A stretch of DNA of 64,000 bases, from the IMG/VR virus record IMGVR_UViG_3300026512_000004, positions 20,653 to 84,652 of that record; one strand, written 5' to 3'. Within the stretch, counting starts at the first letter, position 1. Every line of letters begins with the position of its first letter. Shown in pieces: positions 7,205 through 28,996 of the stretch. Source of the stretch: a virus (Duplodnaviria; Heunggongvirae; Uroviricota; Caudoviricetes). Made by a program: the position numbers and the translations under genes. The notes below the pieces were generated by a model, which was given only the letters and a program-made list of their open reading frames with translations, was not told the origin of the DNA and made no database searches.

Positions 7205-7334
7205 TTAACTATAGGTAAATCTTAAACTCAAGAAGACACTGTGGTGGCAACATTACACTCGGGGATACTGTTCTTTTTGTTCTTTTCTGTAAACGAGTTT
7301 CTGCACAACATTAAATTCGATAAAGGTGTTCATT

Positions 7335-10300
7335 ATGGAGAGGTTTGTCCGAAAACGCAAAGGAACTATTGTACCATTTGATCGTAATCGTATTCAAACA
7401 GCTATCGAAAAAGCATTTAATGCAACTGGTATTAAAGATGACAGAACCGTAGCGAAGGCAACAGACATCGTAGTTGACAAACTTGAACGCGATTTCTTTA
7501 GGTATGGTTCAATACCTCATGTAGAACAAATACAAGATATCGTAGAAAACACGTTGATGACATTGGGATGTACCGAAGTTGCTAAAGCTTACATACTTTA
7601 CCGTGAGAAAAGAAGACAAATACGCGAGCTGAGAGACGCCGAAGTTGATGCTATTAGTCTAATTGATGATTACTTACAACAAGTAGATTGGCGTGTAAGA
7701 GAGAACTCCAATATGACTTATAGTTTACAAGGATTGAATTTTCATATTTCTTCGTCTATTGTAGCAAGATATTGGTTACACAGGATATACCCAGAACGTG
7801 TTCGTTTGGCACATATAAATGGTGATGTACATGTACACGATCTCAATAGCTTGTCTTGTTATTGTAATGGATGGGATTTATATGACTTACTGCTACGCGG
7901 ATTTGGTGGAGTACACGGTAAGGTAGAAAGTAAACCGCCTAAACATTTTAGAACAGCTCTTGGTCAGCTAGTGAACTTTATGTATACTCTACAAGGTGAA
8001 TGTTATTCGGCTGATACTCAAGTGTTGACAGAAAGCGGCTGGAAATACTTTTGGAATGTGAGCATAAATGACAGAATCTATACGCTTAATCCAGAAACCC
8101 GGCAAATTGAACTCCAGAAACCAATAAAACTTTATGAATTTAATTATGACGGCGAACTCTACCATTTTGAAGGAGATGGATTTGACCTGTTGGTAACTCC
8201 AAACCACAATATGTTGGTTTGTGATGATTCACGTCGTCTTACATTTATCAAAGCTCATGAATTTGGACACGAACACAGTATTTTATGTTGTACAAATGGG
8301 GAAATAGATAAACAGTCTTACAGTAAAGCGTCCATTATTGAAAAAGTACCTTACAAAGGCAAAGTCTATTGTTTAGAAGTGCCTAACCATACACTTTGTG
8401 TTAGAAGAAATGGGAAAATTTGTTGGTGTGGTAATTCTGCCGGAGCGGTTGCCGTCTCCAATATAGATACACTTTTGGCTCCGTTTATCCGTTACGATGG
8501 TCTTAATTACGAGCAAGTTAAACAAGCAATACAAGAATTTATTTTCAACATGAATGTACCTACGCGTGTTGGCTTCCAAACCCCCTTTACTAATACCACT
8601 CATGACTTAGTTCCGCCCCCGACACTTAAGGACAACGCTGTTATCATTGGTGGTGAACCGCAAGATGCAACATACGGTGAATTTCAGGAAGAGATGAATA
8701 TGTTTAATCGTGCATTTTTCGAAGTAATGGCAGAAGGCGATGCAAAGGGCCGTCCATTTTCATTTCCAATACCGACTATCAACATAACTAGAGATTTTGA
8801 CTTTAACAATCCCAATTTAGACCCTTTGTGGGAAGCAACTAGACGTTTTGGTACTCCTTATTGGGCAAATTATGTTAACTCTGATATGAAACCTGAAGAT
8901 GCCAGAAGTATGTGTCTTGCACCTTCAACATGTGTGATGATTAAAGACGATAAAGACGAAATACATGTGGGACGTATTTATGAACTCTATAACAAGTTTG
9001 CTGGATGTAGCATAGAAGTACCTTATAATGGTCAATGGGTTCCTGCGAGATTTGTAAAGGTACCTTACAAACAACCGTTCTATCGTGTTAAGTTGAGTAA
9101 TGGCATCAGTCTTGATTTCACTGCCGATCATAAACATGTCACTATAGATGGAATAAAGTTAACTACTGAATTACAGCCTGGTGATTGTCTCGCATGGTCA
9201 ACGGAAATAACACCGTGGAATGGTCAAGTAGGTGATTTTGTTTATGGTTATAAACTAGCAAAAGAAAAAGGGTGTCTTAAACATTGGTTTAAACTGAGTA
9301 CAGATGCACTAGTTGGATTTCTTACATATATACTTACTGAGAACAATGGAGCTTATGGTACTTATGATAAAAATCAGGCATTACGTGTTGGATATATTGC
9401 GAATGTGTTCGGTTATTCGTATAAAATAGTCAGGATAAAAATACGTAGAGAGAATGGTGAAGAAAAAGACTTCTGGGTAACACGTATCTATAGGAACGAT
9501 AGATATGTCTTTGAAGATAAAGACCGATTTGGCTACGTGAAAATTGTAAGTATAGAGAAAATACGTAATAGATCCGGCAAAGCGTATTGTTTTGAAGTGT
9601 ATACAAATGACCACCTGTTTGAGTTACCTTGTGGACTAATAACACATAATTGTTGTAGATTACGACTTGACAATAGGGAACTGCGCAAGAGAGGAGGCGG
9701 ACTATTTGCATCTGCACCATTAACTGGGTCTATTAACGTTGTGACTATCAACATGCCGAGGATTGCTTATTTGTCTCATAGTGAAAAGGACTTCTTTGAA
9801 CGTCTTGAACAAGTTATGGAAATTGCAAAGTTGTGTCACGAAGTTAAACGCAAAGTTCTAGAAGATTTCACGGAAAAAGGTTTGTATCCGTATTCGTGTG
9901 TTTATCTAGATACTATTAAACAACGTACTGGATCCTACTGGTCAAACCACTTTTCCACTATTGGTATAGTTGGTATGCACGAAGCCTGTTTGAATTTTCT
10001 CGGAAAACCTATTTATGATCCGGAGGCAAAGAAATGGTGTATTAAAGTATTAGAGTTTATGCGTGAAAAAATATTGGAGTTTCAGGAAGAGACCGGCAAT
10101 CTGTACAACTTAGAGGCAACGCCTGCAGAATCCTGTTGTTATAGACTTGCAAAAATAGATAAGAAAAAATATCCTGGAATTATTACGTCTGGAACAGAGG
10201 AAGCACCTTATTATACCAATTCAGTACACTTACCTGTTGGCTATACGGATGATATATTTGAGATATTAGAGCACCAGGATGACCTTATGGTTCTTTTTAC

Positions 10301-10535
10301 CGGAGGATGTGTTGTACATTTGTTCGTAGGTGAGGAGATACCCAGTGTTGAAGTAGTTAAGGAGTTAGTGAAATCAATCTGTTGGAATTTTAGATTGCCA
10401 TACTTCTCTATAACACCTACATTTTCAATATGTCCAATACATGGATATATACCTGGTAAACATGAGTTTTGTCCTTATCCCCATACGGAGAAACAGTTAG
10501 CTAAATGGGGTGTTGAAGTTGAAATCGATGAGTAG
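7335..10535 (+). CDS. nrdD: anaerobic ribonucleoside-triphosphate reductase (class III, NrdD) interrupted by two inteins
   Basis: N-terminal ATP-cone (VRKRKGTIVPFDRNRIQTAIEKA). Motifs shared with the T4/E. coli NrdD sequence as recalled from memory: HVHDL...CYCNGWDL, INMPRIAYLS, EATPAESCCYRLAKID, FTGGCVVHL. Likely start is the ATG at 7335 (SD AAAGGTG); the ORF track starts at GTG 7326. Confidence 0.8.
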   Translation: MERFVRKRKGTIVPFDRNRIQTAIEKAFNATGIKDDRTVAKATDIVVDKLERDFFRYGSIPHVEQIQDIVENTLMTLGCTEVAKAYILYREKRRQIRELRDAEVDAISLIDDYLQQVDWRVRENSNMTYSLQGLNFHISSSIVARYWLHRIYPERVRLAHINGDVHVHDLNSLSCYCNGWDLYDLLLRGFGGVHGKVESKPPKHFRTALGQLVNFMYTLQGECYSADTQVLTESGWKYFWNVSINDRIYTLNPETRQIELQKPIKLYEFNYDGELYHFEGDGFDLLVTPNHNMLVCDDSRRLTFIKAHEFGHEHSILCCTNGEIDKQSYSKASIIEKVPYKGKVYCLEVPNHTLCVRRNGKICWCGNSAGAVAVSNIDTLLAPFIRYDGLNYEQVKQAIQEFIFNMNVPTRVGFQTPFTNTTHDLVPPPTLKDNAVIIGGEPQDATYGEFQEEMNMFNRAFFEVMAEGDAKGRPFSFPIPTINITRDFDFNNPNLDPLWEATRRFGTPYWANYVNSDMKPEDARSMCLAPSTCVMIKDDKDEIHVGRIYELYNKFAGCSIEVPYNGQWVPARFVKVPYKQPFYRVKLSNGISLDFTADHKHVTIDGIKLTTELQPGDCLAWSTEITPWNGQVGDFVYGYKLAKEKGCLKHWFKLSTDALVGFLTYILTENNGAYGTYDKNQALRVGYIANVFGYSYKIVRIKIRRENGEEKDFWVTRIYRNDRYVFEDKDRFGYVKIVSIEKIRNRSGKAYCFEVYTNDHLFELPCGLITHNCCRLRLDNRELRKRGGGLFASAPLTGSINVVTINMPRIAYLSHSEKDFFERLEQVMEIAKLCHEVKRKVLEDFTEKGLYPYSCVYLDTIKQRTGSYWSNHFSTIGIVGMHEACLNFLGKPIYDPEAKKWCIKVLEFMREKILEFQEETGNLYNLEATPAESCCYRLAKIDKKKYPGIITSGTEEAPYYTNSVHLPVGYTDDIFEILEHQDDLMVLFTGGCVVHLFVGEEIPSVEVVKELVKSICWNFRLPYFSITPTFSICPIHGYIPGKHEFCPYPHTEKQLAKWGVEVEIDE
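8001..8435 (+). mobile_element. mini-intein 1 inside nrdD (about 145 aa)
   Basis: Block A CYSADTQVL directly after extein YTLQGE; block B LLVTPNHNML; block F VYCLEVPNHTLCVRRNG; C-terminal boundary ambiguous (...KICWCGN/S at 8433-8435 or ...KICW/C at 8426), no canonical HN. Confidence 0.55.
8913..9650 (+). mobile_element. intein 2 inside nrdD (246 aa)
   Basis: Block A CLAPSTCVMIKDD; block B ISLDFTADHKHVT; blocks F/G YCFEVYTNDHLFELPCGLITHN followed by +1 Cys (CCRLRL); possible degenerate endonuclease insert (LVGFLTYILTENNGAYG). Confidence 0.7.
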
Positions 10536-10600
10536 TTTCATCAGGGAACACTTTGTATAATTGTTTGATACTTGTTTAAAGACAGCGGAGGTATAGATAT

Positions 10601-10759
10601 ATGTCAAAGAGACGTGTCAAATTGATACCATGCGAGGTATACAGTAGAGTGGTTGGATACTACAGACCAGTATCACATTGGAACACTGGTAAACAGCAGG
10701 AATTTAAGGAAAGGAAGACTGTGAAATTAAGCACGTATAAGAAAATCGGAGTAAGCTAG
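10601..10759 (+). CDS. stand-alone glycyl-radical domain peptide of NrdD (52 aa)
   Basis: MSKRRVKLIPCEVYSRVVGYYRPVSHWNTGKQQEFKERKTV matches the NrdD C-terminal RxxGYxxxxxxxNxGKxxExxxR glycyl-radical motif; own SD GCGGAGGT 8 nt upstream; different frame from nrdD, which stops at 10535; below the ORF-track size cut-off. Confidence 0.65.
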   Translation: MSKRRVKLIPCEVYSRVVGYYRPVSHWNTGKQQEFKERKTVKLSTYKKIGVS

Positions 10760-10772
10760 TCATGAAAATCCG

Positions 10773-10792
10773 GGTCCATCTGGGCCCGGGTA
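10773..10792 (+). other. GC-rich hairpin CCGGGTCCATCTGGGCCCGG
   Basis: Imperfect inverted repeat after the nrdD glycyl-radical ORF; related to the hairpin at 3129; no T-run. Confidence 0.3.
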
Positions 10793-10816
10793 TCATCTAG
10801 TTGCGAGGCTAAGCTT

Positions 10817-11815
10817 ATGATTACAGCTCAAGACGTTGCATGGTTTGAAAAGTACCGTCCAAACACCATAGACGATATGTTATTCGAATCCGAGGAACAA
10901 GAACGATTATGCCGTAATATAATAGAACAGGGACCTAAAGGCAACATATTACTGTACGGACCACCTGGTACGGGTAAAACTACTTTTGCACGCATAATTA
11001 TCAGAACCTTTATTAAGTCTGAACATGACATATTTAAATGCTCCAAAAGGTCAGTAACAGAGATTGACGAGGTTATAAAATGGATACCACGTGTACCTTT
11101 TCAATCCCCCTTCAAAATTGTATACATCGAGGAAATTGATAAACTCAGTAGAGAAGCACAGACAACACTTAAAGATGGTGCAATGGAACGTAACATTGTA
11201 CACACAAAGTTTATTGCTACTACTAACTGGGTGGAGAAGTTAGATGTTGCCTTAGTATCTCGTTTTGATACAAAACTACATTTCAGTGGTAAATACGATA
11301 AAGCGAAACTGAAAGTATTCCTTGGGAAGGTTCTACAGAACGAAAATGCTAAATATGATGAACAGAAACTAGAGGAGTTTATCAGTCGTCTTGGTGAAAA
11401 AGTTGACATGCGTTCCTTATTATCCAACTTGCAGATAGCGTATATTAAAGGTAATGGTAGTATCAATTTCGATGAGATACAGGCTGTAACTTGCTTAGAA
11501 GACGATGTAGTTAATTTAATACTTAAGATAGTTAAAAAAGTTAGCGATTTACCCCACAGTGATAGATACAGATGTTGTTTATATCCCATGTCATCTCCAA
11601 TAATGAATGAGTATTCTGAACTGGTAACAAGACTTAGCGAGAATCTGCAATACGAGACTATTTTCAGTGAACTGTATGACAGATTAACTTTGTTCCCATT
11701 GAAAGTCATAGTTGGTAAATACCAAAATGATATGTACAACAAACGACATTTAGACTTGCATCTGTTGGCATGTTTATACGAGTTATTAAGATGTTTGACA
11801 AGTTTGTTCGAATAA
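10817..11815 (+). CDS. clamp-loader AAA+ ATPase (RFC small subunit / T4 gp44-like)
   Basis: LLYGPPGTGKTTFAR Walker A; IVYIEEIDKLSREAQTTL RFC-box-like Walker B/sensor; VSRFD SRC-like motif. Confidence 0.7.
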   Translation: MITAQDVAWFEKYRPNTIDDMLFESEEQERLCRNIIEQGPKGNILLYGPPGTGKTTFARIIIRTFIKSEHDIFKCSKRSVTEIDEVIKWIPRVPFQSPFKIVYIEEIDKLSREAQTTLKDGAMERNIVHTKFIATTNWVEKLDVALVSRFDTKLHFSGKYDKAKLKVFLGKVLQNENAKYDEQKLEEFISRLGEKVDMRSLLSNLQIAYIKGNGSINFDEIQAVTCLEDDVVNLILKIVKKVSDLPHSDRYRCCLYPMSSPIMNEYSELVTRLSENLQYETIFSELYDRLTLFPLKVIVGKYQNDMYNKRHLDLHLLACLYELLRCLTSLFE

Positions 11816-11835
11816 TTTTGAAGTAGGTTGTTGAG

Positions 11836-12285
11836 ATGAATAATGAAGTCTTGCTTATATATTACCGTGATACTTATGCGAGGTACAACTGTTCCCATGT
11901 ATCACAAGTTGGTTTTCTGATACTAAGTGATAAGGTATATCAAATAAATCCGAATATTGTTCATGTACTTAGTAAACTTAGTCCTTTCAGCTCTGTTATA
12001 GAACCTGCTAATATAACTTATGGATACCACAACGGTGGAGATTCTTGTGCAATTAAGTTTAGACCGACTAATGTACACGATTTCGTAAAGTGGTGTCTTA
12101 GTGTAAGATCAAGTGAATTATCAACATATAAAGGTATTGCTGGCGAAACAAAGTCTTTCAAAGATTTACTGAACAAAATGTTGAAGAGTAAATTTGCCGA
12201 TTTTCACCTACAAGTATTACGTTTTGTACCAGACTTATTTGATAATCCGGATGTGAAGAAAACAATTATTAAGAGAAAATTATAA
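11836..12285 (+). CDS. hypothetical protein (clamp-loader small subunit position)
   Basis: 149 aa immediately downstream of clamp loader, as gp62 follows gp44 in T4; no motif. Confidence 0.3.
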   Translation: MNNEVLLIYYRDTYARYNCSHVSQVGFLILSDKVYQINPNIVHVLSKLSPFSSVIEPANITYGYHNGGDSCAIKFRPTNVHDFVKWCLSVRSSELSTYKGIAGETKSFKDLLNKMLKSKFADFHLQVLRFVPDLFDNPDVKKTIIKRKL

Positions 12286-12320
12286 TTTAAACACAAATCT
12301 TACCTTTCAAAGAACTGACT

Positions 12321-14069
12321 ATGGCAATTAAAGTTTTAGAAGCAATACAGCAAATCCAATTACACCCTGCAATGTGGATTGATGCTTACACACCAGAAGG
12401 TGTCATCCGTGAAGTAGTTGAAAACGCTGCCGATGAATTACTTAACCGTTATGGCGATAAGTTATATGTATATATACAGCCTTATGAAGATACTATACGA
12501 GTAACCGTTGCAGACAATGGACGTGGTATTCCTATCACTAAAGTTAAACTACCTAACAGTGATAAGGAAATTGACAGTGTCATAGCTATTTGTTGTCATT
12601 TGTTCTCTGGAGAGAAGTTCGACAAGGACACTTATCAACATTCCACGGGATTACACGGTGTTGGATTAGTTGTTGTAAATGCTTTATCACGTAAAATGAC
12701 TGTACAGGTTAAGAAAGGTGATAAATTATATCAGTACTACTTTGAAAAAGGACGTCTCATTGATAGAATTGTCGTTAGCGCAAAAGAAACTCATCCTTCT
12801 ACTCTAGTTTCTTTTATACCAGATCCCCAATACTTCGGGCAGGTGCCGCAGGAAGTAGATGCTTATGAACGCATCTACGACTTACTTAAACTGTTATCTA
12901 CTTACGGTTTCGATATCAGATTAAATGACCAGCAAATTAAATATACGTTACAGGAATTTTTGGCAGAAAAATTACCGGGCATAGAATTCACTGAATTTAA
13001 GTTTAGTACACGTGAATATACTTGTGAATATTACTTCTCTATCAGTGAAGATCCTGTAGAATATGTACACGGATACGTTAATTTACATAAATGTGGCGGT
13101 GAACACATCAAAGCGTTTAGAAGTGCTGTTGCTTCTGTTTGTAGTAAGATAACTGGATTATCTAGATACATCTTTGAACAGAGAGTACCGTTTGTTGGAT
13201 TTGTTTGGGCAAAAAGACCTAAGTTTGAATCACAGGCTAAAATTAACTTCGTAAACTCAGATTTTCAAAGTACGTTAAACAAAAAGATAGATATACTGAG
13301 TAAAGTAATTGAGAACAATTTCGGAAAAGTATTAGATGCAATAAAGGAGAAATATACCGCATCTAAATTAAGTAGACAAATTAAGAAGACAATCTCCGCT
13401 GATAACCCTTTGAAAGATTGCAGATTCCCTGATAAAGGTATATTGTATATCCTAGAGGGTGAATCTGCAGGTAGCGGATTTGCTCAGGTGAGAAATAAAG
13501 ATTATGAAGCTGTTATGATGTTAGGTGGTAAAGTTACTAACGTTTGGAAAGATCCTGATGCTGTTTTCAAGAAAGGTGGTGAAGTCAAAAAAGAATTAAA
13601 ATGGTTACTGGAGGCAGTAGGATGGACGCCTAAAGGAAAACCGAGATGGAGATATAAAGAGATTAAGATATTAACAGATCCGGATCCAGATGGTCAACAC
13701 ATCACAGTATTAGTTGTTCTGATATTGTACGAATATTGCAGACAACTGATAGAGGAAAAACGTGTTAAAATAATATTGACGCCAATCTATCTAGGCGTTA
13801 AAGGCAAGAATTATGTACCAATTTATCGGGTACAAGACAGAAATAAATTTTCCAAAGTGATAAGAATAAAGGGTCTGGCACAAATACCACCTAAAATACT
13901 GAGGGAAATATTAAATAATCCGTTAGAGTTTACGATTGGAATTCCAGAACATATTGAAGAGTTAAAAGCAATCCTACTTTCAAACGTGAAGACTGCGTTA
14001 TTGGAGAAAGAAACACTGGGGTTTATTTCCTTGTTAGAAAGTATTGTTGGTAACCGTAAAAACAGTTAG
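12321..14069 (+). CDS. type II DNA topoisomerase large subunit (GyrB-like ATPase + Toprim, T4 gp39/gp60-like)
   Basis: GHKL ATPase motifs (GLHGVGLVVVNALS, ADNGRGIP); Toprim EGESAGSG and DPDPDGQHI. Confidence 0.8.
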   Translation: MAIKVLEAIQQIQLHPAMWIDAYTPEGVIREVVENAADELLNRYGDKLYVYIQPYEDTIRVTVADNGRGIPITKVKLPNSDKEIDSVIAICCHLFSGEKFDKDTYQHSTGLHGVGLVVVNALSRKMTVQVKKGDKLYQYYFEKGRLIDRIVVSAKETHPSTLVSFIPDPQYFGQVPQEVDAYERIYDLLKLLSTYGFDIRLNDQQIKYTLQEFLAEKLPGIEFTEFKFSTREYTCEYYFSISEDPVEYVHGYVNLHKCGGEHIKAFRSAVASVCSKITGLSRYIFEQRVPFVGFVWAKRPKFESQAKINFVNSDFQSTLNKKIDILSKVIENNFGKVLDAIKEKYTASKLSRQIKKTISADNPLKDCRFPDKGILYILEGESAGSGFAQVRNKDYEAVMMLGGKVTNVWKDPDAVFKKGGEVKKELKWLLEAVGWTPKGKPRWRYKEIKILTDPDPDGQHITVLVVLILYEYCRQLIEEKRVKIILTPIYLGVKGKNYVPIYRVQDRNKFSKVIRIKGLAQIPPKILREILNNPLEFTIGIPEHIEELKAILLSNVKTALLEKETLGFISLLESIVGNRKNS

Positions 14070-14132
14070 GTCAGAACTACAGATATTTAACTCTGATCTG
14101 TAGATAAAAACTAACTTAAAGGAGGTTGGCGC

Positions 14133-14441
14133 ATGGATGCCGTAGTTAAACCCAAAAGATCCCCTTCTAAACCACTTACACAGGAAGAGATAATTGCGAT
14201 AATTGGATTGGCTAAAAAGGGATTTACAAATGCCGAAATAGCAGCCAAAGTAGGTTGTACAAAAGCGCAGGTGCAGAGAGTTATATACGATTACAAAAAG
14301 ATTTGCAAAGAGAAAGGTATACCACATGGAATACCTGAAAGGAAGGCTACTAAGAACGGTTCTGTAATTAAGAGCACACTTAGTCAGATTGCTAATGGTT
14401 CTGTCAATTTGGACGACGTTCTCAAAAAGTTCGGACTTTAA
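14133..14441 (+). CDS. small helix-turn-helix DNA-binding protein
   Basis: GFTNAEIAAKVGCTKAQVQRVIYD HTH; strong SD AAAGGAGGT; 8-bp hairpin upstream (14078-14104). Confidence 0.5.
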   Translation: MDAVVKPKRSPSKPLTQEEIIAIIGLAKKGFTNAEIAAKVGCTKAQVQRVIYDYKKICKEKGIPHGIPERKATKNGSVIKSTLSQIANGSVNLDDVLKKFGL

Positions 14442-14452
14442 ACCTTTGCAGG

Positions 14453-14499
14453 TGCGGGCTGTAGAACTCTAGGTATGGCCCGCGCCGACTTCTCTTTTT
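14453..14499 (+). terminator. rho-independent terminator candidate
   Basis: GTGCGGGC...GCCCGCGC stem with nested TAGA/TCTA, followed by TTCTCTTTTTG. Confidence 0.45.
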
Positions 14500-14526
14500 G
14501 CAAACGTGTCAAGAAAGGGGGCTTAT

Positions 14527-15216
14527 ATGCAACTTGAGGATGTGGTCCAGTTTATACCTAAAACTATTCAAGGAGAGGGTAAACGTGCTGGACATATTTG
14601 CACACTTTTACGGTTCAAGAAGTGTTTACGTTCCTGTCCATTTTGCGACACCACAGAGTTAATGAAACAGGAATGTTTACCCATCACTATTGACCGGGTT
14701 GCTGATGCAGTCAAGGATACGCATATGTTATTGATAACAGGTGGTGAACCATTAATCTACTTACCACAAATAGCACTATTAGTTCAGTATATTTCAATTT
14801 CACATTCAATTAAGGTTGATTTAGAAACTGCTGGACCGAAGAACAATAAAGCAGGTAAACTCAGTCTAACACAAATACACAAGTATTTACGTATTATAAA
14901 TCAGAACACAGATTTAAATATTGTATTTAGTCCAAAAATATTTAACGATAGAGACCTATGTGAAGCGTGTGATTTTCTACGTATCATTAAAGACTTCAAA
15001 TTTACCGTAAAAGTACTTGTGCCATTTACCAGTGACCATGTGAAGTATTTCTTGTATCATTATAAGACTATGTATTCAGAAGAAAATTTATACTTTATGC
15101 CCATGGGTCAAACGAAAGAAGAACTGGAGAAGAATATACCCGCCACATTAGAAACTGTTTACGAATATGGTGGCAATTTTACGCATAGACTACATTTACT
15201 AACTAATATGCCCTAA
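14527..15216 (+). CDS. queE: 7-carboxy-7-deazaguanine synthase (QueE-like radical SAM)
   Basis: IPKTIQGEGKRAGHICTLLRFKKCLRSCPFCDT closely parallels E. coli QueE FQTLQGEG...GCPVGCAWCDT; ITGGEPL motif; ATG 14527 preferred (SD AAAGGGGG) over GTG 14506. Confidence 0.75.
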   Translation: MQLEDVVQFIPKTIQGEGKRAGHICTLLRFKKCLRSCPFCDTTELMKQECLPITIDRVADAVKDTHMLLITGGEPLIYLPQIALLVQYISISHSIKVDLETAGPKNNKAGKLSLTQIHKYLRIINQNTDLNIVFSPKIFNDRDLCEACDFLRIIKDFKFTVKVLVPFTSDHVKYFLYHYKTMYSEENLYFMPMGQTKEELEKNIPATLETVYEYGGNFTHRLHLLTNMP

Positions 15217-15217
15217 A

Positions 15218-16513
15218 ATGAAGGCTATAAAACGTAAGAAACAGTCTGCTAGAACATACGAACTTCTACGACAAGTTACACAATATCTCACACGTCCCAA
15301 TTTACGCGAACGTCTTGATAATGTATTAGCAATAAATAAAGAACTAAAATTTGTAACACATAAACGTATTTGGTTGTATTTTCTGAAACGACCACAAATT
15401 ATCAAATGGGTTAACGAGTACATTAATGACAAGTATATTCATTATCAGCCAACAGAGGCATTAAAGACAGCTGCTTTTGTATGCGATCAACATAGACTAA
15501 CAAGCAACGATTTACATTATGCTCGCACACCAGAAATAGATGACACGATAGAAGAATTAAGACTACAGTTGACATCCGGACTTGAACTGAGGAACTCCTC
15601 TGATTTTTCAACGTTACAGTATTTACTCAATAATGTTGTCAAAGTTAAAACATTAGAGGAATTTATACAAGAAATACTACAAGATGTGGAAAATTGCAGG
15701 TCTAAATGTCCACTTGGCCAATTACAACGTCCCGTTGTTGTGTTAGATGGCAATATTGAATATGTTGGACCTGTAGATGTGATGTTTATTGGCTTGAATC
15801 CTGGTACTGAAGAGGCTAAACAGGGTAAACCGTTTGTTGGTCTTACCGGTATTAAACTGCGTGAATTTGTGGAAAATAACTTAGGTCATTTGAAGTACAT
15901 TTTTACTAATTGTATCTTGTGTTCTACAAGGAATGAAAGCGAAATCCCGGAGATACAGAAAGTAATAACACTATGTAGACAACATGTTACTAAGATTGTC
16001 CAAACATTTCAACCAAAGATAATCGTATTAGTTGGCGATAAAGCGTGTTCATCTTTTGGTATCACTGGTAAAATAAGTCAGATATCTGGAACTCTTATTA
16101 ATGATAAATACTTTCCATTGATACACCCTTCTGCTGTATCTAGGAACCCTCATTGGAAAGATTTGTGGGAAAGAAGTCTGGATAACTTGTTAATGGTTTT
16201 GGGTATTGAGAAAAAGAACAAGGTAGAGATTAAAGGCGGCAGTACAGTTACTTGGGATGATGTACGTGAAATGCAGTTAACCTTGTTCGACCTAAAGATA
16301 TTAGAAGGTCAAACTGCTATTTACATATTCTTGGATAACGAGGGTAAAAAGTATTACTTAGTTGAAGAACCGAAGCACAGGATATATATTAAGCGTGGTG
16401 AATTGCCGTTTCTAGCCTTAGTTGAAGATGAGTTCGATCAGTATGTTGATTTAACACCACGAGAGAAACATTTTCTTGTTGCCGAACTAAGAAAACGTAT
16501 TGCGCAGATTTGA
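15218..16513 (+). CDS. UDG-superfamily (family-4-like, Fe-S) domain protein with N- and C-terminal extensions
   Basis: Residues about 160-330 align motif by motif with family-4 UDGs. Fe-S Cys motifs: CRSKCPL, NCILC, LCRQH, ACSSF. Motif A: VMFIGLNPGTEEAKQGKPFVGLTGIKL, versus GEGPGeeEdxxGrPFvGkaG. Motif B: FPLIHPSAVSRNP. The catalytic-motif residue is Asn (GLNPG), as in MUG/TDG. The start overlaps the queE stop. Confidence 0.7.
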   Translation: MKAIKRKKQSARTYELLRQVTQYLTRPNLRERLDNVLAINKELKFVTHKRIWLYFLKRPQIIKWVNEYINDKYIHYQPTEALKTAAFVCDQHRLTSNDLHYARTPEIDDTIEELRLQLTSGLELRNSSDFSTLQYLLNNVVKVKTLEEFIQEILQDVENCRSKCPLGQLQRPVVVLDGNIEYVGPVDVMFIGLNPGTEEAKQGKPFVGLTGIKLREFVENNLGHLKYIFTNCILCSTRNESEIPEIQKVITLCRQHVTKIVQTFQPKIIVLVGDKACSSFGITGKISQISGTLINDKYFPLIHPSAVSRNPHWKDLWERSLDNLLMVLGIEKKNKVEIKGGSTVTWDDVREMQLTLFDLKILEGQTAIYIFLDNEGKKYYLVEEPKHRIYIKRGELPFLALVEDEFDQYVDLTPREKHFLVAELRKRIAQI

Positions 16514-17291
16514 GAATATGCTTACACGTATTCTTGAACGATACAGTCAACTAGATTTATCTGAAAGTATACGAGACAGAATTCAGTGGTATTTAGGTGA
16601 TGAACGGGATCAAATTGTCACCGCCTTGGACGTCGTCGAAGTGGATATGAAACAGGCATTTCTGCATTTAATTAAGTTAGATCCTAATTTAAGTCGAAAA
16701 TACGCAAAACATATTCCACGTTGGGAACAATTGGATAAACAAGCTCGTAACATTGAAATTGGTAAAACATTGTCTAGTGATGATGTACAATATCTGAATT
16801 TTCTATCCAAAGTATCTGTATTGACTTATATCGATATAGTTTTTGAACATTACACACTATTGGAACTGAAAAAAGACGGTGCATTAGTAGTAGCGGAAAA
16901 GAGGGAGAAGTTGTTACATCACCCGCTTTGTGACCAATTAGAGTTCAGATGTACCGTTTACGACTTCTACACTAGAATTTACAAAACGAGTTACTATTGG
17001 AATGGTGAACTAATTATCAAAGGACAGTATAAAGGATTACCAATAGGTTTACGGAAGTTGTTAGTGTGGTTTCTTAAGGATAAGCAAGATAAGGTGTTAG
17101 AAACAGCAAGACGAGTTTACCATATTGAATTCATGAGAAAGTATAAAGACCAGGTTGCAAAGTGGTACATGTTTGAGAACGGTAAAGTGTTAGATATAAC
17201 AGGTAAATTAGGAGACAAATGTCATCCCTTAGCATACACCATATGGATATTCAATCCAGTAATTACTGAAATTGTAAAAGCGGGGGTGTAA
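16500..17291 (+). CDS. hypothetical protein
   Basis: 263 aa ORF overlapping upstream stop. Confidence 0.45.
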   Translation: MRRFENMLTRILERYSQLDLSESIRDRIQWYLGDERDQIVTALDVVEVDMKQAFLHLIKLDPNLSRKYAKHIPRWEQLDKQARNIEIGKTLSSDDVQYLNFLSKVSVLTYIDIVFEHYTLLELKKDGALVVAEKREKLLHHPLCDQLEFRCTVYDFYTRIYKTSYYWNGELIIKGQYKGLPIGLRKLLVWFLKDKQDKVLETARRVYHIEFMRKYKDQVAKWYMFENGKVLDITGKLGDKCHPLAYTIWIFNPVITEIVKAGV

Positions 17292-17294
17292 ACA

Positions 17295-17570
17295 ATGCAA
17301 ACTTTAAACGGACCACAACAAATCAAGATTGACATTTCACAACTTGAAGATGTTAAATGTAAAAGATGTGGTGGCACTCTATTTGTACCAGTATTTCTAA
17401 TTAAACGTATATCACCTTTGTTGTCACCTACAGGACGTGAGGAGTTTATTACAATACCAGCTAGTTTAGCATGTTTACGTTGTGGAGAAGTATTACATGT
17501 GGACCCGAATAGCCAAGAAGGATCTGGACAAACTGTTGATACGTCATCCACGGTTGGAAAAGCTGATTAA
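17295..17570 (+). CDS. zinc-ribbon protein
   Basis: CKRCGG...CLRCGE two CxxC pairs. Confidence 0.4.
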   Translation: MQTLNGPQQIKIDISQLEDVKCKRCGGTLFVPVFLIKRISPLLSPTGREEFITIPASLACLRCGEVLHVDPNSQEGSGQTVDTSSTVGKAD

Positions 17571-18876
17571 TGATATCATCTTGATAGAAACATCTGAGTA
17601 CTATTATTTACCAAGACTTCTTTACAAGAAATATCCAGAAGTAGAATTAATTTGTAACAAACAGTTTACACCCAGAAGAATAGAAGTTGAGTTTAAAGGA
17701 CAATTACGTCCTGAACAAACTAATATTATCAGTCAGATTCTAGAACATTGGAAAACTAGTGATACACCAGGTGGTATCATAGAGGCGCCTCCTGGTACTG
17801 GTAAGACGGTTCTAGGTGTTTATCTAACGTGCATAACTAAATTGGCGACAATGGTTATTGTAGATAATCGTAAAATTGCAGATCAGTGGATTAATGAATA
17901 TCTTAAATTCAGTAATGTAAGTGAAAAAGATATTGACATTGTCAAACGCAAAGAACCAACACCAGGCAAAAAAGTGTATATAGCTTATGTGCAGACGCTG
18001 TTATCACGTATGAAAAAAGACATACGTAATATACGTGAATCAGTTAAACGTTGTGGTATTGGTTTAGTTCTCTACGACGAAGTTCATAGAATTGCTACCG
18101 GACAAAGATATGCTAAAGTGTCGGTCCTTTTTGACACGCCTTTGTTAATTGGCTTATCTGCCACTCCTTTCAGTCATGGTGTTCATGAATTTCTAATGTA
18201 CAATACTATAGGACCTGTGATAGCTAGTGGTGGTGAAATGATGCCTTGTCTTTTGAGACGTATTTTCTATAACTCTGGGTTATCTCAGTACGCTTCATCT
18301 ATACTGTCTATGGGTGACGAAACAAGAAGAAAAGCAAAGTATAACTCATTGATAACTCATTCTGATACGTGTAAACTCGTTATACGAGATCAGGTGGAAA
18401 AGCTCCTGAAAGAAGGTCGACAAGTTTTCGTAGTGGTTTTGACGGTTGACCATGCTGAAAGTTTAGCATCTTTTCTGCGTTCGAGTTTAGGAGTTCGTAC
18501 TGCTGCTTTACACCGTAAAAATCCAAATGTAACAGTTGATGACAAAGTAATAGTCAGCACTTACAAAATGGGATCACATGGGTTCAATATGCCAACATTA
18601 TCTGCAGCAATAATACCAATACTACTGGCAGGTAAAGTTAGTCTGAAACAAAGTATTGGTCGTATTGTTAGAAGATTACCTGGTAAACAGCAGCCTATTG
18701 TTGTTGATTTAGAAGATATGGATTTTCAGAATGTATTTAGGAAGCAGTTGATAGCAAAGAAAAATGTGTTGAAAACGTATTTACCTATCAAAAAATATGA
18801 GTTTTTAAAGGCGATTGTTGATGTCCAGAAACAAAAAGTGTGGTACACGAACATTAACACTTCCAACAGTTTTTGA
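17482..18876 (+). CDS. SF2 DNA/RNA helicase (DExH-box)
   Basis: Motif I APPGTGKT, motif II LYDEVH, motif III SAT; C-terminal RecA-like domain. Confidence 0.7.
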   Translation: MEKYYMWTRIAKKDLDKLLIRHPRLEKLINDIILIETSEYYYLPRLLYKKYPEVELICNKQFTPRRIEVEFKGQLRPEQTNIISQILEHWKTSDTPGGIIEAPPGTGKTVLGVYLTCITKLATMVIVDNRKIADQWINEYLKFSNVSEKDIDIVKRKEPTPGKKVYIAYVQTLLSRMKKDIRNIRESVKRCGIGLVLYDEVHRIATGQRYAKVSVLFDTPLLIGLSATPFSHGVHEFLMYNTIGPVIASGGEMMPCLLRRIFYNSGLSQYASSILSMGDETRRKAKYNSLITHSDTCKLVIRDQVEKLLKEGRQVFVVVLTVDHAESLASFLRSSLGVRTAALHRKNPNVTVDDKVIVSTYKMGSHGFNMPTLSAAIIPILLAGKVSLKQSIGRIVRRLPGKQQPIVVDLEDMDFQNVFRKQLIAKKNVLKTYLPIKKYEFLKAIVDVQKQKVWYTNINTSNSF

Positions 18877-21395: not shown

Positions 21396-21567
21396 GTTAG
21401 AAGAACCTCTACAGATAATCGATGTACTGAAACAATGTATTTGTGAACTTACAAATAGTATTAAACAAATACAAGAGATGTGTACTATGTTATCCGATAA
21501 AGTGAGTAAGCTTGAAACTCGTGTAAAAAGGTTAGAAAAAAGCAAGAAGAAAAATGGCAAAAATTAA
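21379..21567 (+). CDS. small coiled-coil protein
   Basis: 62 aa, heptad-like K/E-rich; may be spurious. Confidence 0.25.
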   Translation: MEKKIKLEEPLQIIDVLKQCICELTNSIKQIQEMCTMLSDKVSKLETRVKRLEKSKKKNGKN

Positions 21568-22336
21568 CGTCGTTCTATCAGGTAGTGGTGCTAATTTTAC
21601 GGTACACATCGGCGCCTTATACGCATTAACTAAAGAATTAGCATTCGATATAAATTCTATTACGTGTGTATCTGGTGGCGCGTTAATTGGTGGATTAGTT
21701 GCGGCCGGAATTTCATTGGAAGATTTGCTAGACGCAGTATTGCGTGTAGACTTACGGGAATTAATACAACCTGTGCCCTGGTGGAAACGTTTATTTGTTA
21801 AACACTTCTATGAGACGAACAAAGTTGCCGAGTACTTAAAATACTTAACAGGTAACTGTTCAATTAAAGAGTGTAAATACGATATAGCTATTGTAACCAC
21901 TGATTACATGAAATGTGATAGGAAAATCTTTACGAAAAACGATGATATAGAATTGTGGCGTGCTATACTTGCGTCTATGTCAGTGCCTATACTATTTCCA
22001 CCGGTAAAATGGCAGGGATATATTCTAAGAGACGGTGCAGTTGTAAACAATATGCCTATTGACATTGCTACTGAATTATTCGGAGAACCTGTTATTGGTA
22101 TAAAAGTAGTACCGCCGAAAACATACATAAAACCTGGTAGTTGGAAGTTTGAACTGATAAGTCTTATTGATAGTTTTATGACGGCTTTAGACAGAGAACA
22201 TATGGAGGAAAACGCGGACAAAGTAGTGTTCGTTAAGTGCGGTTGGCAAAGTTTTAACTTCGATATACCTATTGAAGTTAGAAGAGCACAGTTTGAGGCA
22301 GGTAGACAAGCTGTACTGCGCTACTATAATAAGTAA
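21554..22336 (+). CDS. patatin-like phospholipase
   Basis: VVLSGSGANFTVHIGALYA (oxyanion Gly-rich), GxSxG serine motif CVSGGAL, conserved D in DGAVVNN (catalytic dyad). Confidence 0.65.
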   Translation: MAKINVVLSGSGANFTVHIGALYALTKELAFDINSITCVSGGALIGGLVAAGISLEDLLDAVLRVDLRELIQPVPWWKRLFVKHFYETNKVAEYLKYLTGNCSIKECKYDIAIVTTDYMKCDRKIFTKNDDIELWRAILASMSVPILFPPVKWQGYILRDGAVVNNMPIDIATELFGEPVIGIKVVPPKTYIKPGSWKFELISLIDSFMTALDREHMEENADKVVFVKCGWQSFNFDIPIEVRRAQFEAGRQAVLRYYNK

Positions 22337-22907: not shown

Positions 22908-23777
22908 TTGGTCATGAACATACCAGCAGACTTTTACACACGAGTCGAAGATCCACGCTTTCTACATTATGTTCTATACGGTGATACTGACAGTTTGTTT
23001 TTGCATGTACCTTTTGTACACTACGAAACGACTAAAGAAGCAATTGAGAAAGCACAAAAAATCGCAAAGCAAATTAACGACAGAATCCAAGCGTACTTAA
23101 ATGTTGAAATGCTACCTAAAATGGGTGTCGACCCTAAATATAATTTTACTGACTTTAAAACAGAGCTAGTAATTAAGTCGTTAATGCTTCTCGAGGTCAA
23201 GAAAAATTATGCATTGAAAATAATTGCTGAAAAAGACGAGGTATTTTCTAGTCCAAAGATTAAGTACACGGGATTACCTATTGTTAAAGCAGATGTTGCT
23301 GCCTTAGCTAAACAATTCTTAAAAGAACTTGTAGACAACATTGTCTTAAATGAAGAAATCCCTCTGGAACAGAAACTGGATCATTGTGAACGTATACGTG
23401 AAGTGTATAAAAAACGTACAAAAGAAGCGTGCGATAACTTCCAAATACACCTAATAGGCAAACCTGCTAAGATGTCTAATACGGAAAGTAATGCTCATCA
23501 CATACAGGCAATGAAACGTTGGAACACGTGGTGGAGTAATGACTTCAAGTTAGGTACATCTGGTTATTTAGTGTACACAGATAGAGGTGAACTTGCGGTA
23601 CCATTTTGGTATGACGAACACATGGTCAAGAGAGCATTTGAAAAAATGCAACTGAAACTCGATATTAATGCTATTTGGAACAAATTTATCTACATCACGA
23701 TTACACAACGTATTATCAAACTATGTGCAAAATATTGCCAAGATCCGCTAAAACGTGTAAACTATGACGTACAATGA
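22908..23777 (+). CDS. family-B DNA polymerase, C-terminal fragment (palm motif C + thumb)
   Basis: YGDTDSLFL (motif C) 24 aa from N-terminus, KKNYALK (KKRY motif), GLPIVKAD; begins right after a terminator; TTG 22908 or ATG 22914. Confidence 0.8.
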   Translation: MVMNIPADFYTRVEDPRFLHYVLYGDTDSLFLHVPFVHYETTKEAIEKAQKIAKQINDRIQAYLNVEMLPKMGVDPKYNFTDFKTELVIKSLMLLEVKKNYALKIIAEKDEVFSSPKIKYTGLPIVKADVAALAKQFLKELVDNIVLNEEIPLEQKLDHCERIREVYKKRTKEACDNFQIHLIGKPAKMSNTESNAHHIQAMKRWNTWWSNDFKLGTSGYLVYTDRGELAVPFWYDEHMVKRAFEKMQLKLDINAIWNKFIYITITQRIIKLCAKYCQDPLKRVNYDVQ

Positions 23778-26787: not shown

Positions 26788-27540
26788 ATGGAGAAAGTAC
26801 GTTGCGGAAAATGTGGTAGATATGTTCCTAAGAGTTCTTGTCTTCCGTATCGGACTAAAAGAGGCAAATATGCAGGCAGACCTAGTTGGATCTGTTTTGA
26901 GTGTTACATTACATGCGAAGATGATATAGAACTTCTGACACCAGATTGGAATAAGATACAAAATAAGATACAAGAACTTATAGATATTTTACATGAAGAA
27001 TTAGGTTGGTTTAATAGTGAAGAATTAAAAAATACCGCTAGAAGAATTGCTAATTTCTACAAAGAATGGGCAAGTAATCAATCGTTTAAGTTTACCACGT
27101 TTGAACGTGATTTAGTTGAAAGTAAATTAGACCAGCTAATAGTATATCGGGATATCAAGTTCTTTAGTATGTGTAGTCATCATATGTTGCCATTCTATGG
27201 TGTTTGTCATGTTGCTTACTTACCCCGTGACGAAGTTGCTGGAGCATCTAAAATTGCCAGAATGGTAGTTGCTAAAGCCAGTAAACCACAAATACAGGAA
27301 AAACTGACAGATGAGATTTGTAGAGAATTGTTCGATACACTTAAAGCTAAGTTCGTTATGGTAGTAATGGAGGCGACACATTTATGTATGGTTTGTAGAG
27401 GGATAAAACAGTATGGCAGTAAGATGGTAACATCTTCTATTAGATACGATAAAGAAGCACAGGAGTCAGGTGAGATAGATTGGAAAACCTTGAAAGAGGA
27501 AAGTTTAATTTTGTTCAGGGGATTGAGACAAGACTTTTAA
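26788..27540 (+). CDS. folE: GTP cyclohydrolase I (FolE) with N-terminal Cys4 zinc-ribbon extension
   Basis: FFSMCSHHMLPFYGVCHVAYLPRDEVAGASKIARMV...QIQEKLTDEI matches FolE CEHHLVPF...GLSKLARIV...QVQERLT; N-terminal CGKCGR...CFEC. Confidence 0.8.
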   Translation: MEKVRCGKCGRYVPKSSCLPYRTKRGKYAGRPSWICFECYITCEDDIELLTPDWNKIQNKIQELIDILHEELGWFNSEELKNTARRIANFYKEWASNQSFKFTTFERDLVESKLDQLIVYRDIKFFSMCSHHMLPFYGVCHVAYLPRDEVAGASKIARMVVAKASKPQIQEKLTDEICRELFDTLKAKFVMVVMEATHLCMVCRGIKQYGSKMVTSSIRYDKEAQESGEIDWKTLKEESLILFRGLRQDF

Positions 27541-27770: not shown

Positions 27771-28076
27771 ATGCGGTTTGTTCGACGTTCAACATTGGCT
27801 GTAACCAAACGTACAATACGTACTCGACGGATACCAGAAGTTTTACGATCTGATGCTCGTTGTTCTCTACAACAATATCGTTATCTACTTACTGTACTCG
27901 ACAAGTACAAACACGCGTTTATGATAAATACTGCATGTGATAACTGGATTATGTGTTTAACGTCTGATCCTATGGATGCGTTTTACTGGGGTGTTACGCC
28001 ACAAAATGAAATTTGGGCCTCTTGTACGATGAATATTATGGATAAATTTACTCTAGGAATGCAAACAGAACTATAG
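27771..28076 (+). CDS. hypothetical protein
   Basis: 101 aa ORF. Confidence 0.4.
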   Translation: MRFVRRSTLAVTKRTIRTRRIPEVLRSDARCSLQQYRYLLTVLDKYKHAFMINTACDNWIMCLTSDPMDAFYWGVTPQNEIWASCTMNIMDKFTLGMQTEL

Positions 28077-28111
28077 ATATTTCAACTAAACGAAGTAGAG
28101 TGAGGTTTAGA

Positions 28112-28993: not shown

Positions 28994-28996
28994 GAA

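Follow-up and report, generated by a model that had tools for sequence, protein, structure and literature searches.

A UDG-like phage protein encoded next to a QueE-like gene is probably one subunit of a three-piece, T4-like family-B DNA polymerase

The gene at 15218-16513 likely encodes a subunit of the phage's replicative DNA polymerase, a T4-like (gp43-type) family-B enzyme divided into three polypeptides, and its glycosylase domain is most likely active or at least a base-flipping sensor. Sequence comparison establishes the identity of the domains, the splitting of the polymerase, the synteny and the pairing of the genes; assembly of the subunits, catalysis, substrate and a functional tie to QueE are inferred. 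The whole stretch of DNA analysed, called the window in the following, spans 64 kb of a 122-kb contig, and the genes described below between 14527 and 27540 are on the plus strand. No DNA near-identical to the window was found among GenBank phages. Moreover, no full-length relative of the 431-aa product of 15218-16513 was found among about 50,000 deposited phage genomes. A tblastn search with this protein against GenBank phages returned matches to the UDG domain only, with a coverage of at most 47% and mostly located within polymerases.

The protein consists of three domains. Residues 1-160 (15218-15697) form an all-helical domain in which residues 109-140 are predicted to be disordered. A family-4-type Fe-S UDG domain follows (15698-16207). 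The C-terminal domain (residues 346-431; 16253-16510) consists of four beta-strands, one more strand and then a helix. HMM and alignment equate this domain with the N-terminal segment of gp43-type PolB, approximately residues 1-75. An earlier note on this DNA had described extensions of 180 aa and 90 aa. The extensions are present, measuring ~160 aa at the N-terminus and ~100 aa at the C-terminus. Neither is an accessory domain on a free enzyme. The C-terminal extension represents the strand/helix segment from the N-terminus of the family-B polymerase that this phage itself encodes.

The closest structures to the alpha/beta fold of the UDG domain are those of family 4. Direct reading of the sequence gives C160-x3-C164-PL, FIGLNPGTEEAKQGKPFVGLTG, TNCILC235, C253 and IHPSAVSRNP, the last containing the HPS of motif B. 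Motif A (nt 15791-15805) reads GLNPG and not GE[AG]PG as in family 4, and in HMM alignments L193-N194 take the place of E-[A/G]. The earlier description of the motifs holds, in that the scaffold is of the family-4 Fe-S type and Asn occupies the catalytic position of MUG/SMUG. The same note had counted a CxxxC pair plus three further Cys; the conserved putative 4Fe-4S ligands total four (C160, C164, C235 and C253) and are kept in 98/100 family members. MUG/TDG (family 2) and SMUG (family 3) likewise have Asn as third residue of motif A (G[IM]NPG), where it is the water-positioning residue. The features of family 2 as a whole, G[IL]NPG on a MUG-type scaffold without Fe-S cluster and a motif B without His, are not found here. 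Unlike family-4 UDGs (T. thermophilus UDGA 1ui0, T. maritima TM0511 1l9g/1vk2, S. tokodaii 4zbx) and UdgX, the window protein has GLNPG for GE[AG]PG and two extra domains, and no KRRIH loop can be seen in its sequence. NCBIfam scores stay far below the cut-offs (59.3 bits against 125.3 for TIGR00758, 66.8 against 250 for NF040953, 45 against 190 for the UdgX model). The family of this protein comprises 157 clusters at E<1e-30. Since motif A differs from the family-4 GE[AG]PG, activity and substrate cannot be read off it. With the pocket intact (Asn194 in GLNPG, Phe206, Asn231 and His303), the tethered domain most likely works as a glycosylase, or failing that as a base-flipping sensor. The closest relatives, P0002-P0004, also keep every pocket residue.

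The remaining parts of the polymerase are encoded by two further ORFs. A 289-aa palm/thumb fragment (22908-23777) begins just before motif C (YGDTDS) and covers positions 220-413 of the Pfam DNA_pol_B profile. A 647-aa exonuclease plus N/palm/fingers fragment (23764-25707), identified by Pfam and by RB69 gp43 as closest solved relative (1e-18), contains Exo I-III, motif A (DLDASRLYPS) and motif B (KVIMNTCYG) and terminates right after motif B. The gp43-type motifs LYLDIEV, DLDASRLYPS, KVIMNTCYG and YGDTDS are thus all present across the two ORFs. Since the palm/thumb fragment is encoded upstream of the exonuclease fragment, the gene order is permuted.

Uncultured phages encode single-chain UDG-PolB proteins of 1080-1300 aa, whose first 260-430 residues correspond to the entire UDG-like protein. 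The three window proteins map onto these fusions in order and without overlap (in P0152, for example, residues 1-257, 322-779 and 801-1003 for the UDG-like protein, the exonuclease fragment and the palm/thumb fragment, respectively). Pfam finds UDG, DNA_pol_B_exo1 and DNA_pol_B in one chain in P0139, P0144, P0147 and P0153. P0148 matches the same three models, P0130 and P0142 match UDG and DNA_pol_B, and these three proteins terminate after motif B, at the same point as the window's exonuclease fragment. An HMM of the C-terminal domain matches the segment between UDG and exonuclease in the fusions (P0153 27.7 bits, P0148 26.4, P0151 23.0), the best of 5000 decoys reaching 11.6 bits. The start of the exonuclease fragment corresponds to RB69 residue 92 minus about 28. 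The fragment has no equivalent of the first ~60 gp43 residues, and a contiguous N-terminal segment (~1-75) is not present on it. Residue 26 of S-B43 gp43 aligns to residue 235 of P0144, so that canonical gp43 enters the inter-domain segment; a MAFFT block gives the same result. A link of the C-terminal domain to canonical PolB was not returned by a profile search against PDB sequences, nor by Pfam on a concatenate of this domain and the exonuclease fragment. Against one cyanophage gp43 the HMM matched the correct place with 4.4 bits, which is not significant. No UDG-PolB covering at least 80% of the fused query P0144 was found among 50,697 GenBank phage genomes.

The order UDG-like gene, helicase, palm/thumb fragment, exonuclease fragment is kept in four related loci (L001, L005, L007 and L012, of which L007 stops before the exonuclease gene). 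In these loci the helicase gene directly follows the UDG-like gene. A fifth locus (L011) has the UDG-like gene, then the exonuclease part before the C-terminal part, and no helicase match. In the window the SF2 (ResIII/SNF2-like) helicase is encoded at 17482-18876 (Pfam ResIII 1.3e-22). Two ORFs precede it. The first, of 263 aa (16500-17291), matches no Pfam, NCBIfam or PHROG family and is absent from this position in the relatives; L012 has a homologue elsewhere in the module. The second, of 91 aa (17295-17570), contains two CxxC pairs, possibly a zinc ribbon, has no family match and is an insertion relative to these loci. Clamp-loader-like AAA+ genes are apparently located at 10817-11815. 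Structural genes were found in the 10 kb to the right of the window (L008). A promoter and terminator scan around the genes gave results at chance level.

Based on the colinearity and the domain comparison, we propose that the UDG-like subunit combines a helical N-terminal domain, a 4Fe-4S family-4-type UDG and a stretch of ~75 residues with which the N-terminal domain of the polymerase begins. By means of this ~75-residue segment, exactly the one missing from the exonuclease subunit, it would dock onto the exonuclease/fingers subunit. Addition of the palm/thumb subunit would then rebuild the single-chain UDG-PolB architecture. At the fork, the tethered UDG domain would screen the template or the nascent DNA for uracil-type bases in the manner of phage UDG-PolA, and it may add processivity as poxvirus D4/E4 does.

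Phage UDG-PolA proteins (SPO1, SP-10/SP-15, YerA41/phiLo [PDB 9qhs], N4-like, T5, PaBG) also carry a family-4 UDG N-terminally on a replicative polymerase, and PDB 9qhs is a direct sequence and structure match of the window protein. The classes of UDG-PolA are described in PMC10201439. Some are active and others inactivated, and an enrichment is seen in phages whose DNA is modified (PMC10201439; bioRxiv 10.1101/2025.03.26.645540; PMC7412058). An active UDG-PolA examines the template in front of the polymerase (bioRxiv 10.1101/2025.03.26.645540). In contrast to these proteins, the polymerase in the window is of family B (gp43-like) and not of family A, its UDG is a separate polypeptide with a polymerase N-terminal piece and an extra helical domain, motif A contains Asn ([GA][LE]NPG), and a QueE-like gene is a conserved neighbour. 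The poxvirus holoenzyme (E9/F8 PolB, A20/A22, D4/E4 UDG) belongs to an unrelated virus lineage; D4 is a family-1 enzyme without Fe-S cluster, is bridged by A20 and shares no polymerase segment. T4/RB69 gp43, RB69 gp43 being the closest solved PolB, has the same Exo I-III and polymerase motifs A, B and C. Some T4-like phages have a split gp43, annotated as two genes e.g. in cyanophage ACG-2014f, whereas the split in the window is three-way, with permuted order (N-module, then C-part and exo-part) and with the UDG and a helical module added.

The most serious alternative, although unlikely, is that the protein is the same polymerase subunit with a catalytically inert UDG domain, serving as DNA-binding, processivity or Fe-S structural module. 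Conservation within the family lends some weight to it. Among 100 three-domain relatives the Asn of motif A is present in 63, His303 in 62 and Phe206 in 61; only 37 retain the whole set of four pocket residues, as against the near-invariant Fe-S cysteines. Degenerate forms of motif A such as GLSPS, NLFPS and GEHPI are common. With only 37 keeping the full set, catalysis is dispensable for a large part of the family. In the N4-like UDG-PolA the catalytic residues are lost (PMC10201439), and the hypothesis of a processivity role is found in PMC3201878. An inert module of this kind has been proposed for the N4-, T5- and SPO1-type UDG-PolA, and poxvirus D4 acts in this way in its holoenzyme. The window protein and P0002-P0004, however, keep the whole pocket. 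Moreover, [AS]ENPGK, PL[IV]G, TNxVLC and HPS are kept in 28/29 members of the fused [AS]ENPG clade that is linked to QueE, which indicates purifying selection on the pocket. A separate processivity device also appears less needed, because the phage appears to have the clamp-loader-like AAA+ genes at 10817-11815. We favour a polymerase subunit with a working glycosylase or sensor domain.

Directly upstream of the UDG-like gene lies a gene for a QueE-like radical-SAM protein of 229 aa (14527-15216), belonging to what we call the 'SPKIFN' subgroup. Its ATG is at 14527 with AAAGGGGG just ahead, and its stop codon TAA (15214-15216) is separated by 1 nt from the ATG of the UDG-like gene at 15218, as had been noted before. 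The product matches PHROG 2076 'QueE-like' over its full length (1e-27). In an alignment with bacterial and phage QueEs the invariant residues are kept: QGEG at the N-terminus, R29, C33/C37/C40 (CxxxCxxC) followed by DT, TGGEP, E100, SPK and H223, including the conserved Arg, Glu, Lys and His. The best GenBank phage matches are annotated QueEs with 23-32% identity. NCBIfam QueE models match the N-terminal half only and stay under the cut-off; the best score is 54.7 bits for TIGR03963 against 260, below equivalog level. The enzyme probably still makes 7-carboxy-7-deazaguanine.

The pairing of the two genes recurs in IMG/VR, where dozens of large, uncultured phages have it. The 'SPKIFN' subgroup is found at most 1.3 kb downstream in 27 of 30 evaluable, independent UDG-PolB loci of the [AS]ENPG type. 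Searched from the QueE side, the subgroup lies directly downstream of UDG-PolB in about 30/34 loci. In the window the adjacency survives despite another gene order and a split polymerase. Five related loci had first suggested an adjacency specific to the window, an idea that was dropped as the contexts on the QueE side show recurrence. The adjacency is not accidental, and in regarding the QueE neighbourhood as meaningful the earlier note was right. A role limited to uracil repair does not account for the near-obligate pairing within the [AS]ENPG clade. As the QueE-linked loci belong to a single clade, with 43-65% identity to P0144, much of the association can be inherited synteny. No QueE was found within 4-10 kb of the five closest three-domain lineages, nor near four UDG-PolB fusions of the AEAPG type. 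Other deazaguanine-pathway genes are mostly not near the UDG-PolB/QueE loci. In some loci PolB and QueE are separated by ORFs, which were tested as a possible third partner; these are heterogeneous, homing endonuclease- or ThyX-like, and have no homologue in the window.

The gene for GTP cyclohydrolase I, FolE, lies at 26788-27540 (Pfam 2e-49), and its product has an N-terminal extension rich in Cys, so that QueE and FolE are both present as first described. A deazapurine cluster around the UDG-like gene was not found: only queE adjoins it, and folE lies 10 kb from it with replication genes in between. The nearest relatives of this FolE subtype are in canonical QueE-QueD-FolE phage clusters. 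QueC, QueD and DpdA are unrecognisable in the window, in agreement with the first reading. The motifs SGGxDS and CxxxHGH are absent from every frame, and no window ORF of at least 100 aa has a Pfam match to QueC, PTPS or TGT (PF01702), a search in which remote proteins of the DpdA3/DpdA4 type may escape notice. PHROGs and NCBIfam, run on part of the unassigned plus-strand ORFs, added no QueC, QueD or DpdA. The ORFs at 28100-30707 (after folE) and 16500-17291, considered as hidden QueD, QueC or DpdA, have no Pfam, NCBIfam or PHROG match and none to the pathway proteins of L057, a locus with a canonical QueF-QueC-QueD-QueE-FolE cluster. By tblastn neither QueD nor QueC was found in the 10 kb to the right of the window. 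The pathway absence thus covers the 64-kb window and 10 kb rightward of the 122-kb contig.

From these genes one might read the polymerase-tethered UDG and the QueE-like enzyme as a DpdA-independent 7-deazapurine system, in which guanine or an unmodified base is excised or exchanged at the fork, or incorporation of deazapurine nucleotides is policed. We consider this quite improbable. The recurrent pairing, the intact QueE residues, the unrecognisable DpdA, QueC and QueD, the deazaguanine-cluster subtype of FolE and a motif A departing from the uracil-specific family-4 motif are consistent with it. The single clade of QueE-linked loci and the missing QueE near the closest lineages and the AEAPG-type fusions argue against it. 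The residues that correspond to the uracil-reading pocket of family 4 (Phe206, Asn231 and His303) are retained, without any sign of a purine-sized pocket. To our knowledge no base-exchange enzyme of the UDG fold has been described. Phage 7-deazaguanine clusters (FolE-QueD-QueE-QueC with DpdA1-4) share QueE-like and FolE genes and the FolE subtype with the window, whereas in the window QueD, QueC and DpdA are not detected, the genes are dispersed, and the QueE subgroup is tied to UDG-PolB and not to the rest of the pathway. Deazaguanine genes lie beside polymerase genes in phiST (PMC10516641), and beside UDG-PolA in L057. There, the UDG-PolA gene adjoins a 338-aa ORF that is a candidate DpdA by its sequence alone, without Pfam match and without counterpart in the window. 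Since this candidate is part of the same cluster, the UDG in L057 would accompany a transglycosylase and does not obviously replace it. Published work reports that no 7-deazaguanine phage is left without a DpdA when HHpred is used to look for the remote families DpdA3 and DpdA4 (PMC10516641), and such a gene may lie in the other ~48 kb of the 122-kb genome. The earlier suggestion of a DpdA substitute acting by base exchange remains low-probability speculation, because the five closest lineages have no QueE within 4-10 kb and because of the arrangement in L057.

In bacteria, a UdgX-family domain, which is family-4-like, and a radical-SAM protein of 'DNA modification/repair' form a genetic pair (TIGR03914/TIGR03916), which we take as a lead only. 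TIGR03914 matches the UDG-like protein weakly, but the radical-SAM partner there is larger, of another family and not QueE-like, and the polymerase context is missing.

That the protein is a free-standing repair or anti-restriction uracil/mismatch glycosylase, placed in the replication module by chance, is most improbable: many phages encode a UDG in trans and standalone GLNPG/GINPG proteins of 180-215 aa appeared in the same search (among them P0085, P0097, P0100 and P0110), but both flanking domains are conserved with and colinear to the UDG-PolB fusions, D358, K378 and Y380 of the C-terminal domain are better conserved than the catalytic residues, and the exonuclease fragment is without the matching N-terminal segment.

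Taken together, our data suggest that a polymerase-borne UDG domain is not restricted to family A. Fusions of UDG and replicase were previously known for family-A polymerases, and the coupling of base surveillance to replication is only now being shown. Family-B T4-like polymerases carry the same solution, in at least 157 protein clusters. The UDG module can moreover be separated as a subunit of its own that takes a piece of the polymerase along, resulting in a natural three-piece, order-permuted PolB. For annotation, this guards against classing the gene with stand-alone repair UDGs or with new enzymes of DNA modification. In one clade the glycosylase pocket is conserved and a QueE-like gene almost always follows, which provides a testable link between deazapurine metabolism and the replisome. 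A DpdA-independent, co-replicative system, if true, would contradict the view of 7-deazaguanine DNA modification as always post-replicative and DpdA-dependent.

Only four relatives of the 431-aa UDG-like protein were found by word-indexed search, whereas an exhaustive profile search (E<1e-30) yielded 157 clusters. Some 110 of them consist of proteins 450-560 aa long that share the three-domain make-up of the window protein. A dozen matches of 775-1300 aa are single chains in which Pfam places UDG first, DNA_pol_B_exo1 second and DNA_pol_B last, and some of them also carry the N-terminal helical domain. Three proteins of the window align in order and without overlap along these UDG-PolB chains (BLASTP). 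On the fused protein P0152, residues 150-390 of the UDG-like protein map to residues 1-257, the exo/fingers ORF (23764-25707) to 322-779 and the palm/thumb ORF (22908-23777) to 801-1003. The same colinear mapping is seen on P0139, P0144, P0147 and P0153. The family-B polymerase of the window is divided between motifs B and C, the palm/thumb ORF beginning shortly before YGDTDS; P0130, P0142 and P0148 stop directly past motif B, i.e. at the same end point as the exo/fingers ORF. The order is permuted, since the C-terminal part is located upstream of the exo part, which it overlaps by 14 nt. The gp43 of cyanophage ACG-2014f is annotated as two CDS with two small ORFs between them (NC_047714.1 118686-121702, locus L015), hence a split gp43 also occurs in cultured T4-like phages.

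The structure model folds residues 346-431 into four beta-strands and, after these, one more strand and a long helix. An HMM of this C-domain matches fused proteins between their UDG and exonuclease domains with 27.7, 26.4, 23.0 and 21.6 bits, while the top score among 5000 shuffled decoys was 11.6 bits. The nearest solved polymerase to the exo/fingers ORF is RB69 gp43, residue 29 of the ORF aligning to RB69 residue 92, and a cyanophage gp43 has ~60 additional N-terminal residues relative to this ORF. For Synechococcus phage S-B43, canonical gp43 can be aligned to fused P0144 starting at gp43 residue 26, equivalent to P0144 residue 235, and this point falls within the C-domain HMM match. In the multiple alignment, "LTLFDLKILEGQTAIYIFLDNEGKKYYLVEE...IYIK" of the window is aligned on "FYTNIQVVGNNFLVRGYENG...TLFVK" of gp43 and the 431-aa protein ends just past the first gp43 helix. 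Searched directly on its own, the C-domain gave no match among PDB sequences or in Pfam, thus its link to canonical PolB depends on the fusions as intermediates. We conclude that the 431-aa protein is the putative N-terminal subunit of a gp43-type polymerase made in three pieces.

The UDG-like gene is immediately upstream of the same SF2 helicase in four independent relatives (L001-4, L005/6, L007 and L012), followed by the PolB C-part and then the exo part where the contig extends that far. L001-4 comes from a 334-kb contig, and the short contig of L007 stops ahead of the exo part. In a fifth lineage, L011, the UDG-like gene is accompanied by the exo part and then the C-part, without a helicase match. 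Relative to these loci the window has two extra plus-strand ORFs ahead of the helicase (16500-17291 and 17295-17570). Inteins are common in the PolB parts of the relatives, and among L001, L005, L007 and L012 it is often the C-part that has one.

In the window (GC ~36%), a plus-strand block for replication and nucleotide metabolism (~1 to 34 kb) is followed by a minus-strand structural block. The plus-strand queE starts with ATG at 14527, preceded by a Shine-Dalgarno-like AAAGGGGG, and ends with TAA at 15214-15216; the UDG-like ORF extends on the same strand from ATG 15218 to 16513. A GC-rich inverted repeat (GCGGGC...GCCCGC) with a T-run between an HTH gene (14133-14441) and queE may be a terminator (14441-14526), which the consensus terminator scan did not call because the loop is too long. 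The window also encodes a 1069-aa anaerobic ribonucleotide reductase NrdD (7326-10535) with an intein at residues ~550-775 (Pfam Intein_splicing) and its activase-like radical-SAM gene (1751-2413). A patatin-like phospholipase (21554-22336) and an SPFH/Band-7 protein (31533-32474) are likewise encoded in the early region.

The central domain of the 431-aa protein belongs to the UDG superfamily (Pfam UDG 1.7e-17, residues 186-318); NCBIfam family-4 models match at 1e-16 to 1e-18, under the model cut-offs. The family profile matches the solved family-4 enzymes 4zbx, 1l9g/1vk2 and 1ui0 as well as UdgX and 9qhs, the UDG domain of a phage PolA. Direct reading recovered every motif which an earlier note had listed for the ORF, and in alignments GLNPG indeed stands where family-4 enzymes have GE[AG]PG. 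The motif-A Asn, typical of PolB-associated UDGs ([GA][LEI]NPG), occupies the site of the water-positioning Asn in MUG and SMUG. The proposed Fe-S site holds as to its Cys ligands, their count being corrected to four (160, 164, 235 and 253).

These cysteines are conserved in 98 of 100 three-domain relatives and D358, K378 and Y380 of the C-domain in at least 90%. Of the pocket residues, Asn194 is kept in 63, His303 in 62 and Phe206 in 61, and the full set including Asn231 in only 37. Hence fold, cluster and polymerase-docking part are constrained more strongly than catalysis across the family, as would be expected if the UDG domain were an inert structural module. The window protein and its nearest relatives, however, have the complete pocket set, and in the fused QueE-linked clade [AS]ENPGK, PL[IV]G, TNxVLC and HPS are conserved in 28 of 29.

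All functional statements made here are inferred from sequence. The best-supported reading is a docked, uracil-inspecting subunit with a possible processivity role. The 431-aa protein would dock on the exo/fingers subunit via the gp43 N-terminal segment, so that its family-4-type UDG domain with the Fe-S site would stay at the replisome and may inspect DNA there for uracil-type bases. Such inspection was demonstrated structurally and biochemically for UDG-PolA of the SP-15/YerA41 type (bioRxiv 10.1101/2025.03.26.645540). The subunit may also add to processivity, a role proposed for SPO1/T5 and performed by poxvirus D4/E4 (PMC3201878, PMC11912389).

The QueE-like protein has kept those residues that do not vary across bacterial and phage QueEs, and its top GenBank phage matches are annotated QueEs from phages with deazaguanine clusters. 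Its adjacency to the UDG-like gene first appeared specific to the window, as the five closest UDG-like lineages have no nearby QueE; the QueE-side loci overturned this. The nearest QueE homologues, P0157 and P0158, adjoin single-chain UDG-PolB genes. Scanning IMG/VR with the QueE subgroup placed UDG-PolB immediately upstream in ~30 of 34 loci (gaps 11-998 nt). The reverse scan with UDG-PolB, which bears out the co-occurrence raised earlier, found a QueE-like gene ≤1.3 kb downstream in 27 of 30 evaluable loci; both counts are drawn from related metagenomic contigs. The neighbour is absent at four AEAPG-type fusions and five three-domain relatives. The QueE-linked loci form a single clade (43-65% identity to P0144), thus inherited synteny explains much of the count. 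Left over from this explanation is the window itself, which is more distant, has its QueE upstream and its polymerase split, yet keeps the pairing.

Longer gaps contain unrelated ORFs, either Zn-finger/homing-endonuclease-like (L034, L035, L036, L039, L052, L018) or ThyX-looking (L049), and mobile insertions appear to have a hotspot at this junction. Genes for ribosomal protein S21, a Cpn10/GroES-like protein and thymidylate synthase come after the QueE-like gene in the QueE-linked UDG-PolB phages (L018 10675-13478; L020 6484-7980), with a T4-type portal nearby. They look like large marine/freshwater T4-like phages known from metagenomes alone.

The pairing would also suit a less likely rival, a deazapurine-directed enzyme working with QueE. 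FolE (26788-27540) is a solid assignment and of the pathway type, since its nearest relatives sit in canonical QueE-QueD-FolE or QueC-QueE-QueD-FolE clusters. Its N-terminal extension of ~55 aa (26788-26950), absent from standard FolE, contains two CxxC pairs (CGKCG...CFEC) and is possibly a zinc ribbon. In agreement with the earlier note, no QueC, QueD or DpdA was recognised in the 64 kb: SGGxDS and CxxxHGH are missing from every frame, none of the QueC, PTPS and TGT Pfam models matches an ORF of ≥100 aa, and a subset of the plus-strand ORFs left unassigned, run against PHROGs and NCBIfam, added nothing. The search covered the window and 10 kb to its right out of a 122-kb contig; tblastn of L057 pathway proteins against these 10 kb, which carry structural genes, found no QueD, QueC or DpdA. 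Within 8-10 kb of the UDG-PolB/QueE pairs, FolE, QueD and DpdA-like genes were not found and QueC occurs in a few loci.

A published study reports a DpdA for all phages with 7-deazaguanine DNA, provided that HHpred is used to look for the remote families DpdA3 and DpdA4, and has Campylobacter phages and phiST ending at CDG without QueC (PMC10516641). Hence a hidden DpdA or QueD is quite possible in this phage. Three consecutive ORFs of 274-298 aa (28100-30707), downstream of folE after a 101-aa ORF (27771-28076), have no match in Pfam, NCBIfam or PHROG. VIGLGGVGF in the first is a motif of Rossmann type that recalls ThiF/E1 enzymes; the three ORFs could encode an E1-like system or pathway enzymes that have escaped recognition.

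A further case of deazaguanine genes adjoining a UDG-polymerase is L057 (IMGVR_UViG_3300031111_000227, 8106-16714), reading QueF-QueC-QueD-QueE-x-x-FolE-x-DpdA-like with UDG-PolA (GEAPA motif, DnaQ-type exo) directly after. If its 338-aa candidate, DpdA-like by its sequence only and without Pfam match, is called correctly, UDG-polymerases can accompany rather than replace a transglycosylase. On present evidence the 431-aa protein is no new DNA-modification enzyme; fusions and C-domain lead us to read it as a PolB subunit. The same features speak against a free-standing repair enzyme.

Family-A UDG-polymerase fusions are already known (PMC10201439, PMC7412058), and so is a UDG subunit on the family-B replicase of poxviruses. 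Our literature search found no paper on UDG-PolB fusions in phages, nor one on a split form. None of 1572 matching GenBank phage records covers ≥80% of the fused query, and no full-length relative of the 431-aa protein was found in GenBank phages. New here are thus the family-B version of the fusion, its three-way split with permuted gene order and the conserved QueE-like partner.
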